A DNA stretch of 64,000 nucleotides, taken from the NCBI GenBank assembly GCA_029548865.1, contig JAKPMO010000002.1, forward strand, positions 32,001 to 96,000, read 5' to 3'. The position numbers and the translations under genes are program-made. The notes under the pieces were generated by a model. The model worked only from the letters and a program-made list of their open reading frames with translations, had not been told where the DNA came from and ran no database searches. Source of the DNA: Caldisericota bacterium. GTDB taxonomy: Bacteria; Caldisericota; Caldisericia; JAAYUI01. Below, piece by piece: positions 53,703 to 61,970 of the stretch (position 1 is the first letter of the stretch; every line of letters begins with the position of its first letter).

Positions 53703-53737
53703 GTGAGTCATCATAATCGTCAATTTTGATTTGTCAA
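53667..53737 (-). promoter_or_regulatory. tetR promoter with three tandem palindromic operator-like boxes
   Basis: TTGACA-N16-TATGAT on minus strand; TGAY-N6-GTCA at 53667, 53682 and 53697. Confidence 0.7.
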
Positions 53738-53851
53738 GTTTTTTAAGGAACGCCCTGTTTGCTTACTATTGTTTTAAGTTTCACGGCATTGTTTTTAAAA
53801 TATGGAACTCTTAGAACAAAATCATTGAAAACTGGTGGAGGAGGGAATTTG

Positions 53852-55033
53852 ATGAGGAGATGCATATCTGTTGTTTTGCTTTTGTTGTGCCTGTTTCTGG
53901 CGTCATTTCCTGCCAGTGCTGAAAACAAGACAGTGTCATTGGACAAAGAGCATGTCTACAATGGTCATGTCAATTCAAGATTTTGTGTCTGGAGAAACGC
54001 AGCGAAGGGCAATTCGTCAGTATTGAACTTGTTTGACATGGCAAATGGCAAACAGTTCAAGATCAATAGTGGCATCATGCTTGAGATGGCACAATACCAG
54101 GAAGAAATTCATTTGAGTTCGGCGTATGTTTGTTGGAGCTCAATTGGTCCAGGCTGGCCAAAATATGGAATGGCGTGCACTGGCACCACACCAAAGAAGC
54201 TTTGCGAGAACAGTACCATTGATAAACGTGCAAATATTTATGACAGCAGGGTGGTTTTCTTTTCCACTGACAATGGGCGTGGCATTTACTGGAATGATAT
54301 TGCTGATATGGAATCCAAACCTGTGCTTATAGATAAATTAGCTGAACGAACAGCCTATTATTACGAGAAGTTCCCCCGCATTGCCAATGGGAAGGTTGTT
54401 TATTGCAGGCCAAATGAGGAATCGGGTCTGGAAGAGGTTTGCCTTTATGACACCGAGACAGGGGAATTGCAGGTAATAGATTCTGCAAAAGAAGTTGTCA
54501 TGCCCAATATCACCAGAGAATTCATCATCTATGGCGTCATGGACAAAGGAGGCAACCCCGAACTGAGGGCCCTGAACCTGGAAACGAATGAGAAATTCAC
54601 ATTCTTTGACAAAACTCTGGCAAAAATGACCATTTCTATACCAAACAACCCTTATTCAGAACTGTTTCTTTTCAAAACCAGGACGAAAACCCGCTATGAT
54701 TCAGTTGACAAACTTATGTGCTATGACCCGATTACAAAGAAGACAATTACAATTGCGGAGCCTTCATCAAATGGCGATAAGCCAAAGGATGCTTTTTATC
54801 TTGAAAGCCTTTCCGGGTGCTGTTGCGGAAGAAGGGTCGCATATTGTGAAAAGATAGGCCTCAACAGCCAAAGTGGCAAGCTGTTTGTTGTTGATGTCAA
54901 GAAAGATGGCTCCCTGAAAAAGACTGACATCGTGTCCGATTACGCTGAAATTGGAATTTTCAGGGTTTTTTGCGACAAAATGATTTATACAATCAGGAAC
55001 AAGGGCCTGTATTTAACACAGCTGGGAGAATGA
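53852..55033 (+). CDS. Secreted hypothetical protein, probable beta-propeller
   Basis: GGAGGAGG RBS; signal peptide ..ASA; repeated LYD.ETG / LNLET / YDPIT blade-like motifs. Confidence 0.75.
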   Translation: MRRCISVVLLLLCLFLASFPASAENKTVSLDKEHVYNGHVNSRFCVWRNAAKGNSSVLNLFDMANGKQFKINSGIMLEMAQYQEEIHLSSAYVCWSSIGPGWPKYGMACTGTTPKKLCENSTIDKRANIYDSRVVFFSTDNGRGIYWNDIADMESKPVLIDKLAERTAYYYEKFPRIANGKVVYCRPNEESGLEEVCLYDTETGELQVIDSAKEVVMPNITREFIIYGVMDKGGNPELRALNLETNEKFTFFDKTLAKMTISIPNNPYSELFLFKTRTKTRYDSVDKLMCYDPITKKTITIAEPSSNGDKPKDAFYLESLSGCCCGRRVAYCEKIGLNSQSGKLFVVDVKKDGSLKKTDIVSDYAEIGIFRVFCDKMIYTIRNKGLYLTQLGE

Positions 55034-55046
55034 CAAAACTGGAAAA

Positions 55047-55078
55047 ACAAAAGCCCCGGGGTCGGCGGGGCCTTTTTT
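55047..55078. terminator. Bidirectional intrinsic terminator
   Basis: AAAAGCCCCG-GGGTCGG-CGGGGCCTTTTTT. Confidence 0.75.
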
Positions 55079-55173
55079 AGGAGAGGAAAAAAGTTTTAAC
55101 TTGCTTTGGGATCGGGGAGGTCATTCCCGATACAACCCTTACAAACGATTTTCGGGTTTTGTTCCCAAAAAAC

Positions 55174-55224: not shown

Positions 55225-56382
55225 CTATTTGCCGGTTGCCGCCTTGTCCTCGAAGCAGTAGAGTTTTCCATCTGCAGAGCCAATATAAACCCTGTTTTTG
55301 TATACGGCAGGGGAAGCAAATATCCTGTCGCTAGTTTCGAAATGCCAGAGTTTTTTGCCTGTGATCGTGTCTATCAGGTAAACGTTCTTGTCTGCCGAAC
55401 CAACAAACATTTTTGTGCCTGCGATCGCTGGCGTTGACGGGATTGGCACCCAAAGGCCAGGATCAAATGACCAGAGCTCTTTGCCGTCTTCTATCGAAAC
55501 ACAGTAAACGACTCCTGCGTTTGAACCGACAATAAGCCTGTCAATGTAGACTGAAGGCGTCGAGACGATGTCTCCGCCAGTCTTGAATTCCCATATTTTC
55601 TCGCCAGTTGTTGCATTCAGGCAGTATATTTTGTCGTCGTAGGAACCAAAAAACACTCTGTCCCCCCAGACGGATGGCGTTGAAACGACGGCGTTGTCTG
55701 TCTTGAAAGACCACAGCTCGTTCCCGTTCTTGGCGTTCAGACAATACACGTTGTAGTCATTCGAGCCGACGTATGCCCTGTCATTTACCACTGTGACCGA
55801 GGAGCCTATCGGACCTTTTGTTTCAAAGCGCCATGCTTCCTGGCCTGACGACAGGTCAACGCAGTAAACATTGCGGTCTATTGAAGCGTAGTAGATCTTT
55901 GACTGGTAGATTGTGGGTGATGAAAAGTTCTGGGTGCCTTCAATTTCCCAGACTGTTTCACCTGTGGCAGAGCTGAGACAGTAAAGCTTTTTGTCCTGGC
56001 TTGCAAAGCAGACATACCCGCCAGAAACTGCCGGTGAACCAACGGTTCCGCCAGTTTCATGCTTCCATATCAGCGAACCCTCAACACTGTCGATGCAATA
56101 AAGGTTTTTGTCGAAACATCCGAAGAAACACTTTTCATTTTCGAATGCACAGGATGAGGTTATTGGCCCCTTTGTTGCAAAAGACCATTTTTTTATGAGG
56201 TCACTCGTTTGCGGCCCGCAAGTGCCGTGCACTGATGAATTGTGTGATGCACTCTGCCCAAACATTGACCAGTTGCACTCTCCAGAGGGGCCAGGGCCTT
56301 CATTGAACGCCCTGGTGCATGATGATGTCAGGGTGACCATAACAACCAGAATCAGGCTTTTTTGGACAAATCCAATTTTCAT
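55225..56382 (-). CDS. PQQ/BamB-like beta-propeller lipoprotein
   Basis: Probable lipobox TSSC; about 8 repeats of S.P......GS.D...YC.....G...W.F.T. Confidence 0.9.
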   Translation of the reverse strand: MKIGFVQKSLILVVMVTLTSSCTRAFNEGPGPSGECNWSMFGQSASHNSSVHGTCGPQTSDLIKKWSFATKGPITSSCAFENEKCFFGCFDKNLYCIDSVEGSLIWKHETGGTVGSPAVSGGYVCFASQDKKLYCLSSATGETVWEIEGTQNFSSPTIYQSKIYYASIDRNVYCVDLSSGQEAWRFETKGPIGSSVTVVNDRAYVGSNDYNVYCLNAKNGNELWSFKTDNAVVSTPSVWGDRVFFGSYDDKIYCLNATTGEKIWEFKTGGDIVSTPSVYIDRLIVGSNAGVVYCVSIEDGKELWSFDPGLWVPIPSTPAIAGTKMFVGSADKNVYLIDTITGKKLWHFETSDRIFASPAVYKNRVYIGSADGKLYCFEDKAATGK

Positions 56383-56438: not shown

Positions 56439-56469
56439 AAAAAAGAGGGGGCAAAACCCCCTCTTTTTT
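56439..56469. terminator. Intrinsic terminator of giant Cys-rich gene
   Basis: AAAAAAGAGGGGG-CAAAA-CCCCCTCTTTTTT. Confidence 0.9.
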
Positions 56470-56487
56470 CAGAAAATTTGCTTAATG

Positions 56488-59400
56488 TTATTTTGGGCAG
56501 CAGTCCTGGTCCGGGAGTGCCTTCCAGCCTACTATCTCATTGTTGTCATTGATGCACAGCTCTGCGCATCCCTTGTATTGCGAGAGCTTATATCTTCTTG
56601 TTATGTCTATGAGGTCTTCATTTGCCATATAAACGGTCTCGGTCCCGTCACAGCGCTTGAAACCAACCTGCCACTTGTTGTTGGCGTACCTTACATAGCT
56701 GACGATGCCTCTTGTCCACTTGCAGTCCTGGGAACCTACACATGGGCAATCGGTGGCGGTTATTGTCGATGCATAGATGACATATTCCCCCGAGTCAAGG
56801 CGGGTCAATTTTCCGCAAACTTTCCAACATGTCCCAGGTTTTGCGAGGTAGCATATCCTGAGCATGTCGCTAGTCAGGATCACCTTTATTTCCCTGCCTT
56901 TTGCATCTTTGGTGTACAAAACTGGCGGATTTGCATTGCAGTCAGCTTTCAGGACAGTCACGCAATAGCATTCGGTTTGCCCGGAATCGCAGGGGCAATC
57001 CACTTTTTCATACTTTGTGACCTTCATTTTTGCTGGCCCACCCCTTGTTGTCGGGGCGGTCACAATACCACAGACCTTCCAGCATGTGCCTTTCACAAAC
57101 AGTTTGCATATATCCGGCCCGAGCTCCAGCATCCATGTCCTTCCGTTTGACTGTTTGCCGTATGCAATGTATTTCCCTTCTCCACAACTGCTGTCTGTTA
57201 TCTCAAGGCAGATGCATTCTTCTTTCTGGGTTTCCTGGCATGGACACTCGGTTGGTTCTAGTTTGGTGATTTTCAGCCCAAGCCCTGTGGTTGAGGCATC
57301 AATCGGATACTTTACCATCTGGCCACAGACCTTGACGCACCTTCCGGGGACGAGGTAATTGGCCCATTTCTGGCACAATTCCTTTGAAAGAACCAATACT
57401 ATCTCATTCCCGTTCTCGTCCACGCCCCAGACAAGCGGTGGTTCCCTTGTGCAGTCTACCTTTTTGATTGTAACACAGTGGCAAATTTCCTCAGGTGGTT
57501 TTTCTTCACACGGACAGTCCCTCTTTTCGATTTTCAAAAGCTTGAATGATGGTGTTGCACCGGGGTTCTCAACCCATTCGCCACAGACCCACCAGCAAGT
57601 GCCCACTTCTGCCATCTTGCACAAATCGGCAGGAACGGTCATCATGACCGTCTTCTCGCCGATCTTTACATACAGTATGCCTTTCTCACAGTCCCTTCTG
57701 AGTACCTCCATGCAGAAACAGTCAGGTTCTTGTTCTTTGCATGGGCAATCGACTGGGTAGATTTTTGTCAGCTTCAGCACTTTGATGGACACCGTGTCGC
57801 TTATGGCAATCTTTGACCAGACGCCACAAACTTTGATGCATTTTTCTGGCACCAGATAGTTTGCATACCTGTCGCACATCCAGCTTTCGAGAACTAGGGT
57901 GATCTCATTGCCGTTTTCATCGACACCCCAAATCATGGGTGGTTTTGCCGTGCAGTCGACTTTTTTGATCGTGACGCAATGGCATATTTCTTCTGGCGGT
58001 TTTTCTCCACACGGGCAGTCAACCACCTTGATCAGGGAGATTTTCCATGCAATCTGCCCATCTGCCAGTGTTGTTTTGGTTCCACAGACTTCAATGCATT
58101 TGCCTGAGACGAGATAATTGGCGTATTTGTCACAAAGCTCTTTTGAAATCACAAGCACAATGGCGTTTCCGGCCTTGTCCTTGCCCCAGATCATTGGCGG
58201 ATCACTTTCGCATGAAACCTTCTCGATAGTCACGCAAAAACATTCTTCCTTGGGGAGCTGTACGCACGGGCAGTCGACCTGGTTTATGTAGGTCAGCTTT
58301 AATGCCAGTGCGTCAACATTGGGCGCCAAAGCGACCTTGACCATTTTTCCGCAGACCTTGAAACACTTGCCAGGGGAGAGTTTGTCGCCAAACTTCTCGC
58401 ACAGTTCTTTTGTCAGCAGAATGTTTATTTCGTTCCCGTTTTCATCGACACCCATCGCAATTGGCGGGTCTGAATTGCAATCTACTTTTCTTAGTGTCAC
58501 ACAGTGGCAAATCTCCTCTGGTGGCTTATCGCAGGGGCAGTCCCTCTTTTCGTATTTTGTGACCTTAAAATAGGGTGCTGCACTAACCTGCTCTGACCAC
58601 TCGCCACAGACCCACCAGCATGTTCCTGGCTCTGCCATTTTGCAAAGCTCTGGAGGGACCATCAACATGATGGTCTTTTCTCCGATCTTTGCGTACAAAA
58701 TTCCGCGTTCGCAATCTTTTTTCTCAACCTGGACACAGAAGCAGTCTGGTTTTGGCCCCTGTTTGCACGGGCATTCAACAGGGACGATTTTTGTCAGTTT
58801 AAGCACTTCAATGGACACGGTGTCGCTTATGGCAATCTTTGACCAGACGCCACAAACTTTGATGCATTTTTCCGGTACGAGATAATTTGCATACCTGTCG
58901 CACATCCAGCTCTCAAGCACCAGAGTGATCTCGTTGCCGTTTTCATCGACACCCCAAACCACTGGCGGTTTTGCTGTGCAGTCTACTTTTTTGATCGTGA
59001 CGCATCTGCAAATTTCTTCTGGCGGTTTTTCTTCGCATGGGCAATCTGTCTGGCTTATTTTTGTTACCTTCCATACGACAAGTCCGCTTGCAAGCGTTGT
59101 TTTAACTGCACATACCTCGACGCACTTTCCAGGGCCAAGCGCCTCAGCATACTTCAAACATATCTCTTTGCTGACTGCAAGCACGACCTGGTTCCCTTTT
59201 TTGTCCTTGCCCCAGATCATTGGCGGGTCCTGGTCGCATGCAAAGCGGTCAATCGTTACACAGAAGCACTCTTCTTTTGGTTGCTCCGTTCCACAAGGGC
59301 AGTCCCTCTTTTCGTATTTTTCAACCTTGAAATATGGGACAGCACCAGCAACCTCGACCTTTCTTCCGCAGACCCACCAGCATGTTCCGGGCTCTGCCAT

Positions 59401-61887
59401 CTTGCACAGTTCGGCTGATACCGAAAGTATCAGGGTCCTGCCATCGATTGTTGCATAAAGAAGTAGATTCTCGCAATCTTTCTTTTCGATCTTTACGCAG
59501 AAACAGTCAAGCTTTGTTTCTTCCTTGCATGGGCATTCCACCGGGGTGATTGAGGTGACTTCCATATATAGCGCAGAACTTAATGGGCTTGGCTTTGGCA
59601 CCCCACAGACCTTTAAACACTTGCCTGGGACAAGATAGTTGGCATACTTGGCACAGAGTTCCTTTGAGAGACCAAGCGACCACCGTGTTTGTCCACTCTC
59701 GTCTTTCCCAAGTGCCGTCGGGTTCTCACTTGTGCAGTCTACCCTTTCCAGCGTTATGCACAAACATTTCTCTTTTTGCGCTTCACAGGGGCACTCGACA
59801 GGCGCTATTGATGTGACCTTCATTATGACTGCAAGCGTTGAATCCGTGATTATGTAGCAAACTTTCAAGCACTTTCCAGGGACCAGATAGTTTGAATATT
59901 TTTCGCAAAGCTCTTTCGAGAGAAGGAGCGAGAAAAATTTTCCGTTCTCGTCTTTGCCATAAAGCATTGGTTTGTCCGAATTGCAGTCAACCCTCTCTAT
60001 CGTCAGGCAAATGCAATTTTCCTTTTGTTCCTTGATCTTGCACTTGGAACAATCGACCTTTTCTGCCCTTATGACTTTCATCCAGGGCGGGCTGTCGACG
60101 CGGATGATTTCTGGCGGATTTCCACACACCATCCAGCAGGTTCCAGGCTGCATGTCGGCGCACCATTTTGAATCAACGTAGAGTGCCCAAAGCTTGCCAT
60201 TTTCATCATAGCCATAAACGGTTGGCTGGGTTGCATTGCAATCCACGCGGTCAATCTTTACGCAGAAGCATTTTTCATCTGGTTTGCACTGCTCGCACTC
60301 GATTTTTTCAAATCTTACAACCTTGATCCTCTTCGCCTGTACATATGTTGTTGCTGTGGATTGTGGTTGGACATGCCCGCAGATTATGTAGCAGGAACCT
60401 AGTTTCAGCTCCAGGCACATCTTCTCGTCCAGTTCCATCACCCACGGTTTGCCGTTTTTGTCGGTGCCCCATGCCATTGGCGGTGCGCTTGCACAGTCGA
60501 CCTTTTCGATCTTCATGCAGAGACACCTTGGTGCCTGGTTGCCACCGCATGGGCAATCGACTTTTACCGCCCTTGTAACCTTCATTCTTGGCGGGAAGGA
60601 TGCAGAAATGGTATTTGCAGTTGTCACCCCAACAGTCCCGCAAACTTTCCAGCATGTTCCAGGTGTCATTTGCTGACAGAGGCTGGCATCAACTTGCAAG
60701 ATCCATTTCTGGTTCTTTTCATCGACACCATAAACAACAGGAGGGTTTTCCGAACAGTTCTGGGTTTCAATCGTTACGCACATGCACTTGTAGTCCGGGT
60801 ACGGCTCTGGTTTGCATGGGCAATCGGCCTGTTTTACGACCGTCGCGATGAAATAGGTGTTTAGAGCTGTTGCTGTGGTTGGTGTTGAGGCACCTTGCCT
60901 GATTGAACCACAGAATGTGTAGCACCCGCCTTCCTTTACTTTAAGGCACAGTTCTTTTGAAAGGTATATCCGCCACTCTTTGCCATTGGCATCTTTTCCA
61001 TAGACAACTGGCGGTTTTGCATTGCAGTCAACCTTTGATACTGTGACACACATGCACCTTCTGCAATTTGGGTCACCAAACAGCAACTGGACAATCTTGG
61101 TGGCCTCGAACCATTTGATGTCTTCGGGGCCTGTTGCGCCAAGGTTTTCGGCCACAAACCTCATTGGGAGGACTGTCCTTCCACCCACTATGAAGGCAAC
61201 CACTTGTGGGTTGTTCGGGTCAATCTGGACAGGATTTCCATTTACCTTTGCTGTTGGATTTCCGATCTGGATTTCCAGCGTCTGGCCATCGAGTGTTTTT
61301 ATTGCGACGGTTTTTGTCGATGCGTCATAGGCAATCGTTGCTCCGATTTCCTCGGCCACATACCTTATGAGCAGGAACATGCGGTTTTGTGTAAGAATTG
61401 GTGCCGCCTCCATCGGGCCTTTCTGTACATCCCCAGATTTGTAGTATTTATTGCCAATCTGGTATTCCAGCATCAGCCTGCAATCTTCATTCTCTGGCGG
61501 TATTTCCTCAGGAGGATTTTCGCAAGTTGGTGTCCCGCAGGCCTCTTTGGATTGTGTAAACTCATTTGCATTTGCATCCACTGCCCTGACAAAATAACAA
61601 TATTTTGTGCCATTTATGATGTTGATTTCATCTTTGAATACATTATCCGGGATTGGAAAATCTGTCAGCGGGGTGTCGAATTCGGCGCCCTCGGAGGGGC
61701 CCCTGTAAATCCAGTAGTTTATTGCTCCTGCTACTTTCTCCCATTTGAGCACGTTGTAGCCACAGCCTGGTGTTACCTCCAAACTAAACGTTGGTGTAAG
61801 TGAATATGTGTTGCTAAAAGAGAATGGAGTAAAAATAGAGCTTGTCATGGCCAGAACGGTCAGCCAAATAAATAGATTTCTCCTCAT
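56488..61887 (-). CDS. Giant secreted protein: FN3-like + stalk domain + 17 tandem 8-cysteine repeats
   Basis: AAGGAG RBS; signal peptide; LKW..Y.IYR..Y.Y.VRAVD FN3; RMFLLIRYVAEEIGA and RTVLPMRFVAENLG stalk; repeats CxC-x7-C..C..C-x3-C..CPC. Confidence 0.92.
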   Translation of the reverse strand: MRRNLFIWLTVLAMTSSIFTPFSFSNTYSLTPTFSLEVTPGCGYNVLKWEKVAGAINYWIYRGPSEGAEFDTPLTDFPIPDNVFKDEINIINGTKYCYFVRAVDANANEFTQSKEACGTPTCENPPEEIPPENEDCRLMLEYQIGNKYYKSGDVQKGPMEAAPILTQNRMFLLIRYVAEEIGATIAYDASTKTVAIKTLDGQTLEIQIGNPTAKVNGNPVQIDPNNPQVVAFIVGGRTVLPMRFVAENLGATGPEDIKWFEATKIVQLLFGDPNCRRCMCVTVSKVDCNAKPPVVYGKDANGKEWRIYLSKELCLKVKEGGCYTFCGSIRQGASTPTTATALNTYFIATVVKQADCPCKPEPYPDYKCMCVTIETQNCSENPPVVYGVDEKNQKWILQVDASLCQQMTPGTCWKVCGTVGVTTANTISASFPPRMKVTRAVKVDCPCGGNQAPRCLCMKIEKVDCASAPPMAWGTDKNGKPWVMELDEKMCLELKLGSCYIICGHVQPQSTATTYVQAKRIKVVRFEKIECEQCKPDEKCFCVKIDRVDCNATQPTVYGYDENGKLWALYVDSKWCADMQPGTCWMVCGNPPEIIRVDSPPWMKVIRAEKVDCSKCKIKEQKENCICLTIERVDCNSDKPMLYGKDENGKFFSLLLSKELCEKYSNYLVPGKCLKVCYIITDSTLAVIMKVTSIAPVECPCEAQKEKCLCITLERVDCTSENPTALGKDESGQTRWSLGLSKELCAKYANYLVPGKCLKVCGVPKPSPLSSALYMEVTSITPVECPCKEETKLDCFCVKIEKKDCENLLLYATIDGRTLILSVSAELCKMAEPGTCWWVCGRKVEVAGAVPYFKVEKYEKRDCPCGTEQPKEECFCVTIDRFACDQDPPMIWGKDKKGNQVVLAVSKEICLKYAEALGPGKCVEVCAVKTTLASGLVVWKVTKISQTDCPCEEKPPEEICRCVTIKKVDCTAKPPVVWGVDENGNEITLVLESWMCDRYANYLVPEKCIKVCGVWSKIAISDTVSIEVLKLTKIVPVECPCKQGPKPDCFCVQVEKKDCERGILYAKIGEKTIMLMVPPELCKMAEPGTCWWVCGEWSEQVSAAPYFKVTKYEKRDCPCDKPPEEICHCVTLRKVDCNSDPPIAMGVDENGNEINILLTKELCEKFGDKLSPGKCFKVCGKMVKVALAPNVDALALKLTYINQVDCPCVQLPKEECFCVTIEKVSCESDPPMIWGKDKAGNAIVLVISKELCDKYANYLVSGKCIEVCGTKTTLADGQIAWKISLIKVVDCPCGEKPPEEICHCVTIKKVDCTAKPPMIWGVDENGNEITLVLESWMCDRYANYLVPEKCIKVCGVWSKIAISDTVSIKVLKLTKIYPVDCPCKEQEPDCFCMEVLRRDCEKGILYVKIGEKTVMMTVPADLCKMAEVGTCWWVCGEWVENPGATPSFKLLKIEKRDCPCEEKPPEEICHCVTIKKVDCTREPPLVWGVDENGNEIVLVLSKELCQKWANYLVPGRCVKVCGQMVKYPIDASTTGLGLKITKLEPTECPCQETQKEECICLEITDSSCGEGKYIAYGKQSNGRTWMLELGPDICKLFVKGTCWKVCGIVTAPTTRGGPAKMKVTKYEKVDCPCDSGQTECYCVTVLKADCNANPPVLYTKDAKGREIKVILTSDMLRICYLAKPGTCWKVCGKLTRLDSGEYVIYASTITATDCPCVGSQDCKWTRGIVSYVRYANNKWQVGFKRCDGTETVYMANEDLIDITRRYKLSQYKGCAELCINDNNEIVGWKALPDQDCCPK
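56740..61060 (-). repeat. Intragenic tandem array of 17 units of about 77-90 codons
   Basis: Units counted in the translation; near-identical DNA segments at about 57790 and 58816 (offset 1026 bp). Confidence 0.92.
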
Positions 61888-61941
61888 ATAGTGCTCCTTT
61901 CACGTGACGAAATATATGCAACAAAATCAGTCGTAGCTAAT

Positions 61942-61970
61942 ATTAAATTGCTCTTTATATGCGCTGTCAA
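61942..61970 (-). promoter_or_regulatory. Sigma70-type promoter of giant Cys-rich gene
   Basis: TTGACA-N17-TTTAAT on minus strand. Confidence 0.65.

Follow-up and report, generated by a model that had tools for sequence, protein, structure and literature searches.

At positions 56488..61887 of the minus strand of the window, the 64,000-nucleotide stretch of Caldisericota DNA analyzed here, the open reading frame list gives a coding sequence of 1799 amino acids with 148 cysteines, none of which is changed in 1797-aa orthologs (94-96% identity). Reading the upstream sequence by eye we find a sigma-70-like promoter, TTGACA-17 nt-TTTAAT (61942..61970, minus strand), and from the sequence a ribosome-binding site, AAGGAG (61894..61899, minus strand). 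An intrinsic terminator hairpin of 14 pairs with a T run (z -2.5) follows the gene at 56439..56469 (minus strand). The sequence-only reading had given the gene its own promoter and terminator; the hairpin was found, and the promoter is one read from sequence and absent from the listing of the promoter scanner, which demands an A at position 2 of the -10 box and therefore passes over TTTAAT. The gene had also been called monocistronic. The terminator does separate it from a PQQ/BamB-like beta-propeller with a lipobox-like LTSSC (55225..56382, minus strand; Pfam PQQ_2 E 1e-61), but this propeller is a conserved downstream neighbour, lying directly downstream at both same-genus loci with sequence there (2/2) and at 5/7 orthologous loci in the other two genera. 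It may be a partner of the array protein, or this may be plain synteny. A 424-aa ORF at 53759-55033 (plus strand) looks exported and has no Pfam match. One close relative encodes it at 84% identity, whereas another has no match at that place.

Twenty-one sequencing runs are listed, of which 18 contain the stretch and nine of those 18 are recorded as RNA. In all four RNA runs examined, from four studies, contigs cover most of the array gene and end at 56461-56480, at the terminator hairpin, with an upstream reach to 61893 and 61913. These runs were chosen via the array gene itself and are represented by contigs only, with no DNA-run control, and DNA content is possible; the contig ends at the hairpin are a hint, not a measurement, that the array gene is transcribed as a separate unit. 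None of the four runs has contig cover in bins 53736-55136, which proves nothing.

The protein starts with a probable Sec signal peptide (approximately aa 1-27; 61807..61887, minus strand), recognized by eye from a basic start and hydrophobic stretch that are also seen, again by eye, at the N-terminus of homologs. The FN3-like domain proposed earlier, aa 30-125 (61513..61800, minus strand), finds weak support in a match to the Fn3-like protein of PDB 3mpc (E 0.0067), and has no Pfam fn3 match. The stalk domain proposed behind it is confirmed as a Cu_amine_oxidN1 domain (PF07833, aa 158-266, E 9e-21; 61090..61416, minus strand), the array protein scoring 74.3 bits against a cut-off of 24.2. The domain is flanked by C136 and C275 and is present in 20 of the 27 homologs scanned. 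PF07833 domains are described as occurring in surface-exposed proteins and are treated as a wall-binding module (PMC4137172; bioRxiv 10.64898/2026.09.23.753664), and by analogy with this literature the stalk domain is a probable cell-wall tether. The 1.8-Mb genome of the window has 103 PF07833 matches.

Beyond the head, 17 type-A units of eight cysteines each span aa 278-1716 (56740..61056, minus strand), joined by E/K/P-rich linkers of 5-9 aa. A regular expression of the pattern described previously finds all 17 units, and thus all 136 cysteines, with the spacing CxC-x7-C-x22..28-C-x7 or 11-C-x3-C-x21..29-CxC and, as described, a CxxC variant in units 3 and 4. Upon shuffling of the array (1000 shuffles) the pattern matched 0.043 times on average and once at most. 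The units measure 71-82 aa from first to last cysteine and 78-90 aa from start to start, share 23-92% pairwise identity and include a short subtype (units 7, 10 and 14). Because units 9 and 13 are 92% identical, with a 285-nt DNA repeat at 88%, part of the array's growth was by block duplication; complete same-genus copies all have 17+1 units. Conserved columns are cysteines, glycines and core hydrophobics, and the array has a net charge of 0. The loop after the sixth cysteine is the most variable part, as had been observed: C6-C7, the L45 loop of an OB fold, is the least conserved long segment (mean column identity 0.35 over the 17 units). This variability fits a tolerated loop equally well, so ligand binding by the loop does not follow from it. 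The array protein and the 29 proteins matched in the homolog search contain no CxxCH motif, in agreement with the earlier argument that this is not a multihaem cytochrome. Substitutions relative to close relatives cluster in units 5-6 (59527-60015 of the window), with 10+13 and 12+22 changes in two relatives and 2+0 in a third, most units having 0-5. This clustering suggests patchy recombination or selection.

The terminal six-cysteine module (aa 1720-1799; 56491..56730, minus strand) had been taken for a divergent copy of the main unit. This did not hold up, as the hhalign probability between the two is only 1.4%, and we treat it as a separate module type, type B. In the predicted model of unit 17 together with type B (pLDDT 94, pTM 0.62, with a dip at the linker), type B has five strands in OB order, and the best Foldseek matches of the combined model are tandem-OB proteins. 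The dip at the linker and the pTM of 0.62 are what separate beads would be expected to give. Both modules were counted in a pool of 57 proteins, made up of the homolog-search matches minus P0025, three paralog ORFs, and the locus proteins minus two duplicate loci; P0025, an Ig-like repeat protein, was dropped as a false match. The pool contains 123 type-B matches in 35 of its 57 proteins, often in tandem. Homolog arrays are A/B mosaics of varied length, and as read from these sequences type-A and type-B modules are shuffled among relatives.

To address the fold of the main unit we ran AlphaFold2 on unit 9 with the 17-unit alignment. The model (pLDDT 87) has the order b1-b2-b3-helix-b4-b5, and its top structural match is PriB (4gs3; Z 10.9, rmsd 1.7 Å, 77 residues, 8% identity), with SSB, RPA and anticodon domains nearly level. 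The type-A unit is thus predicted to be a five-stranded OB-fold barrel, supporting the earlier suggestion of a small discrete OB-like domain. A complex prediction for two copies of an A-A tandem scored 0.00 and is no evidence either way. That the repeat belongs to no named family also held: no Pfam, NCBIfam or PDB sequence family covers the unit. PDB sequence searches with unit profiles gave zero matches in one case and three chance matches in another, NCBIfam gave a chance match only, and the ESM Atlas gave no usable match, its one unnamed cluster scoring 0.76, too low to count as a real lead. Similarly, no Pfam match to the BOF family was found at E up to 1 (protein) or 10 (units). PF01336 scores 59.7 bits over the whole protein, exceeding its cut-off by summing repeats, and matches 4 of the 17 units individually (best E 0.0033). 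We found no description of the repeat in the open-access literature, supplements, possibly with relevant domain tables, being outside the scope of that search.

The proposed resemblance to DUF5666 is supported only through intermediates. At the gathering cut-off of PF18914 neither the protein nor any of its 17 units matches, and the protein is absent from the seven matches in the genome; one homolog, P0011, does exceed the cut-off when its full sequence is scored. The eight-cysteine profile finds the units of paralogs with four to six cysteines, and these align at an hhalign probability of 96.4% (E 1.2e-9), with C3 and C4 in register, to the units of the C22 paralog, a 1420-aa stalk protein with tandem DUF5666 units (L056:1339-5598). 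Compared directly with the C22 units, type-A units reach 11% (reversed control, 0.2%). The C22 paralog is a true DUF5666 member (96.7 bits versus a cut-off of 27) with one cysteine pair per unit, C3-C4, and is the simplest member of a graded series of 2, 4, 6 and 8 cysteines per unit within one genome. Another member of the genome, the C9 paralog, has 1328 aa and ~70 cysteines, with fewer per unit. Two further ORFs, C11:7016-8548 (L003) and C26:2-5338 (L002), overlap by 46 identical residues and therefore are probably one ~2240-aa paralog cut by the assembly. Judged by these profile comparisons, the eight-cysteine unit is a remote, cysteine-loaded offshoot of DUF5666-like barrels that falls below the family's own threshold.

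The 17-unit profile matches all 11 genomes of the window's Caldisericia family and none of 73 other genomes of the class, and a broader profile has weak matches in 2/82 other genomes of the phylum. Among 1.84 billion representative proteins only 29 matched, and 11 did so in a word-indexed search. Close relatives are Caldisericia or Caldisericales MAGs, and matching runs are from sludge. Confinement to Caldisericia is likely, with most of the matching proteins carrying no taxon. The weak match inspected more closely, in genome G080 of another family, is an 1809-aa protein (L050:2866-8295) with the same FN3-stalk head and type-A- and type-B-like units. This protein also has ~7 copies of a third cysteine-rich repeat of ~95 aa, no single stretch of which matches Pfam.

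We then asked how the cysteines vary. The profile gave 401 units in the pool, 222 of them with residues at all eight columns and 128 under 70% identity. Over these 128 units, counts of both, first only, second only and neither were 122/0/0/6 for C1-C6, 111/0/2/15 for C3-C4 and 116/0/1/11 for C5-C7; the units are related rather than independent, and p-values for pairing are overstated. All eight cysteines are present in 97 units, while C3+C4 are lost in 11, C5+C7 in 8, C1+C6 in 6, and both C3+C4 and C5+C7 in 3. Exceptions are two units with C3 alone missing at its column, though on visual inspection it lies a few positions away, and a single unit that keeps C7 without C5. The same pairs hold under 50% identity (74 units). 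C2 and C8 are present in 128/128 units, an invariance that is partly a product of profile selection, which favours units keeping both, and their pairing is inferred by elimination. The other three pairs agree with the OB strand register known from SSB and AspRS, which places C1 on strand 1 opposite C6 on strand 4, C5 next to where strand 5 ends and C3 next to the helix. In 131 divergent paralog units covariation was significant for C3-C4 only (111/3/2/10), and 48 divergent paralog units with C6 have no N-terminal cysteine within the aligned columns. In type B, all six cysteines are present in 71 of 79 units, and joint losses match those of type A, with c+e lost in three units and a+d in two. 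Because cysteines are lost in pairs and no set of four is obligatory, disulfides are favoured over a metal site. Of the two options left by the sequence-only reading, four disulfides or bound metal, the pairwise and mostly independent losses in the 128 units thus point to the first and speak against a four-cysteine site of the zinc ribbon or metallothionein-like kind; two-coordinate metal sites are possible with such losses. The barrel is apparently locked by three or four disulfides.

Many-disulfide barrels are unexpected here, since the family seems anaerobic and without the known disulfide-making enzymes. From its gene content the family looks anaerobic, with haem-copper oxidase COX1 in 0/11 genomes and cytochrome bd in 1/11 (G065). 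In G065 this cytochrome bd gene, the family's only one, lies ~4 kb upstream of the orthologous array, which is in two ORFs of 1362 and 334 aa (L033:6617-12025). DsbA profiles found no match in the 11 family genomes, two of which are single contigs, with controls behaving as expected, and DsbB and VKOR were over cut-off in none of 84 genomes of the class. According to PMC12453122, exported proteins of obligate anaerobes tend to be kept free of cysteine, and the known exceptions secrete few disulfide-bonded proteins. CcdA and genes for cytochrome c maturation are present in the window's genome, as are at least eight exported thioredoxin-like proteins; genes of these kinds lie at C9:26368-28443 and C17:147457-148969. 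Yet the genome has no ORF of at least 120 aa with two or more CxxCH motifs. Adjacent stalk + AhpC/TSA thioredoxin fusion genes (L055:3037-4762; C18:64036-65761 of the window's genome) occur as a pair in 10 of the 11 family genomes, missing only from one that is 69% complete, with weaker single matches in 3/73 other genomes of the class. By analogy, these stalk-AhpC/TSA thioredoxins are candidate disulfide oxidases or isomerases. A DsbA-like CTHC in one of them was considered and set aside, as it is not conserved and other genera have CVPC, CIPC, CRPC and CAGC. PMC12453122 also reports that the oxidase of Streptococcus gordonii is a protein of the AhpC/TSA family, and that small disulfides are able to recycle a clostridial DsbA. 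The CxxC motifs of the stalk-AhpC/TSA thioredoxins vary, and we regard these proteins as no more than candidates.

Ordinary stalk proteins contain 1.13% cysteine in the window's genome. Of the six other Caldisericia genomes compared (10 loci each), five have 0.36-0.48% and the sixth (G075, another family) has 1.18%. Cysteine parity, counted after residue 35 in 85 PF07833 ORFs of the window's genome, showed no even bias (31 even, 54 odd), which speaks against the disulfide reading. Penicillin-binding proteins are present in this genome, and Omp85/BamA was not found in it. This agrees with a published note on C. exile, which shows an outer envelope of unknown make-up (PMC4104836).

We lean, with somewhat better than even confidence, towards a disulfide-hardened, wall-tethered surface filament or adhesin scaffold of pendant four-disulfide barrels. 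The protein would leave the cell via Sec, and the FN3-stalk head at its N-terminus would tether it to the cell wall, with 17 type-A and one type-B OB-fold barrels displayed beyond it. Four intradomain disulfides would lock each type-A barrel: C1-C6 between strands 1 and 4, C3-C4 between the helix and the end of strand 1, C5-C7 from strand 4 to where strand 5 ends, and C2-C8 from the first strand to the last residue. As C2-C8 would join the entry and exit of the barrel and close it at the base, each barrel would be a pendant, with the disulfide and not the fold carrying the tension. The spine would then consist, per repeat, of C8, the 5-9 residue E/K/P-rich linker, C1, one residue and C2, or ~10 residues. 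A chain extends 0.35 nm per residue, and 17 repeats would give a spine of at most ~60 nm with barrels crowding round it. Such a tough filament, resistant to proteases and unfolding, or adhesin scaffold would most likely serve cell-cell or particle contact in sludge flocs. A broader proposal, which we hold as a possibility at rather less than even confidence, is that this anaerobic Caldisericia family oxidatively folds surface proteins with up to ~110 disulfides per chain via an unrecognised pathway that does without DsbA, DsbB or VKOR. Its substrate would be a new filament design of load-free pendant barrels, with free shuffling of two barrel types. That pathway might use the stalk-anchored AhpC/TSA thioredoxin pair and a small-molecule or sulfur oxidant.

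The net charge of 0 and the structural nature of the conserved columns fit a scaffold better than a single-ligand binder, and varied ligands on the L45 loops are possible with the same evidence. The same fold and disulfides could also belong to a multivalent catcher of a polymer (oligosaccharide, extracellular nucleic acid or peptide) that binds ligand via the OB face and L45. This is unlikely, although it is the most probable of the alternatives. In its favour, the top fold matches are without exception OB folds that bind ligands, no long segment varies more than L45, and 44% of units have a Tyr at one position of strand 2. Two relatives show 10-22 changes in units 5-6 versus 0-5 in most units, and BOF and toxin B subunits are examples of secreted OB folds (PMC2954213). 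However, no conserved basic or aromatic patch or binding face is found in the 128 units, as judged from alignment columns and not coordinates. Unit net charge is -1 to +4 here with a mean of -1.8 across the 128 units, identity to nucleic-acid-binding OB folds is 4-22%, and the fixed number of 17+1 units in complete same-genus copies also argues against it.

The remaining alternatives concern the cysteines themselves. If these were reduced in sulfidic sludge they could bind soft metals (Zn, Cu(I), Hg) as a surface metal sponge or store, which we judge improbable. CxC and CPC resemble metal-binding motifs, one face would carry six of the eight cysteines, and the searches found no classical oxidase system. 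Pairwise loss would be expected of two-coordinate Cys-metal-Cys sites as well, and the C-terminal OB domain of SilB is among the structural matches (Z 8.7). Yet no four cysteines form an obligatory set, the loss of any other pair leaves C2 and C8 in place, and C5 plus a C-terminal cysteine exists in paralogs without C2/C8. The 1439-aa array has only 4 His, and the gradation of 2, 4, 6 and 8 cysteines per unit in one genome also tells against metal storage. Even less probable is a surface thiol/disulfide reservoir, which would serve to buffer oxygen or to pass electrons or sulfur to and from polysulfide or partner cells. Up to 74 cysteine pairs per chain in an apparent anaerobe (COX1 0/11, cytochrome bd 1/11) with CcdA and at least eight exported thioredoxin-like proteins would suit this role, but the pairs tie secondary-structure elements and are not CxxC redox motifs, and single pairs are freely lost. 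Lastly, the cysteines might cross-link neighbouring chains into an envelope lattice, as in the layer formed by the cysteine-rich OmcB of Chlamydia. With Omp85/BamA not found in the window's genome and the C. exile outer envelope described as of unknown make-up (PMC4104836), such a lattice is conceivable, but by covariation every cysteine has its partner inside its own unit, making this highly improbable.

Overall these results describe a real, lineage-restricted and apparently transcribed surface protein of two unnamed cysteine-paired OB modules, encoded by an uncultured sludge bacterium of the class Caldisericia. They define two unnamed domain families, the eight-cysteine type A and the six-cysteine type B, and one genome shows the series from a two-cysteine DUF5666 barrel to an eight-cysteine barrel. 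With 74 possible disulfides in a family without DsbA, DsbB or VKOR, the protein offers an extreme case for studying disulfide formation in anaerobes, and candidate enzymes can be named. An OB barrel of 80 residues, with four disulfides and a loop that tolerates change, might also make a very stable scaffold for binders. The fold itself is a known one; what is new or lacks an explanation is the stapling by four cysteine pairs, the shuffling of modules and the missing oxidation machinery.

Among known systems, DUF5666 (PF18914) proteins have the same barrel type, in tandem and in exported proteins, but type-A units carry eight cysteines and a longer L45 loop and do not match PF18914. The nucleic-acid-binding OB folds (SSB, PriB, RPA, anticodon-binding; PF01336) are alike in fold, with Z up to 10.9, whereas the array protein is exported, has 18 barrels in tandem and neutral charge, and shares 4-22% identity with them. 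BOF, NlpE, KPN03535 and AB5 toxin B subunits place an OB barrel behind an export signal, as here; these are single-domain or oligomeric proteins, and none is a long covalent chain with four cysteine pairs per unit. All four are included among secreted OB folds in PMC2954213. The PF07833 domain is common to the array protein and the Cu_amine_oxidN1 stalk proteins of Firmicutes and Caldisericia. Unlike usual stalk proteins, the array protein has its stalk close to the N-terminus behind an FN3-like domain, and its passenger is a cysteine-rich barrel array and not an enzyme. Ig or FN3 adhesin rods consist of domains arranged head to tail, and the proposed spine, with its barrels as pendants, would differ from them in this respect.
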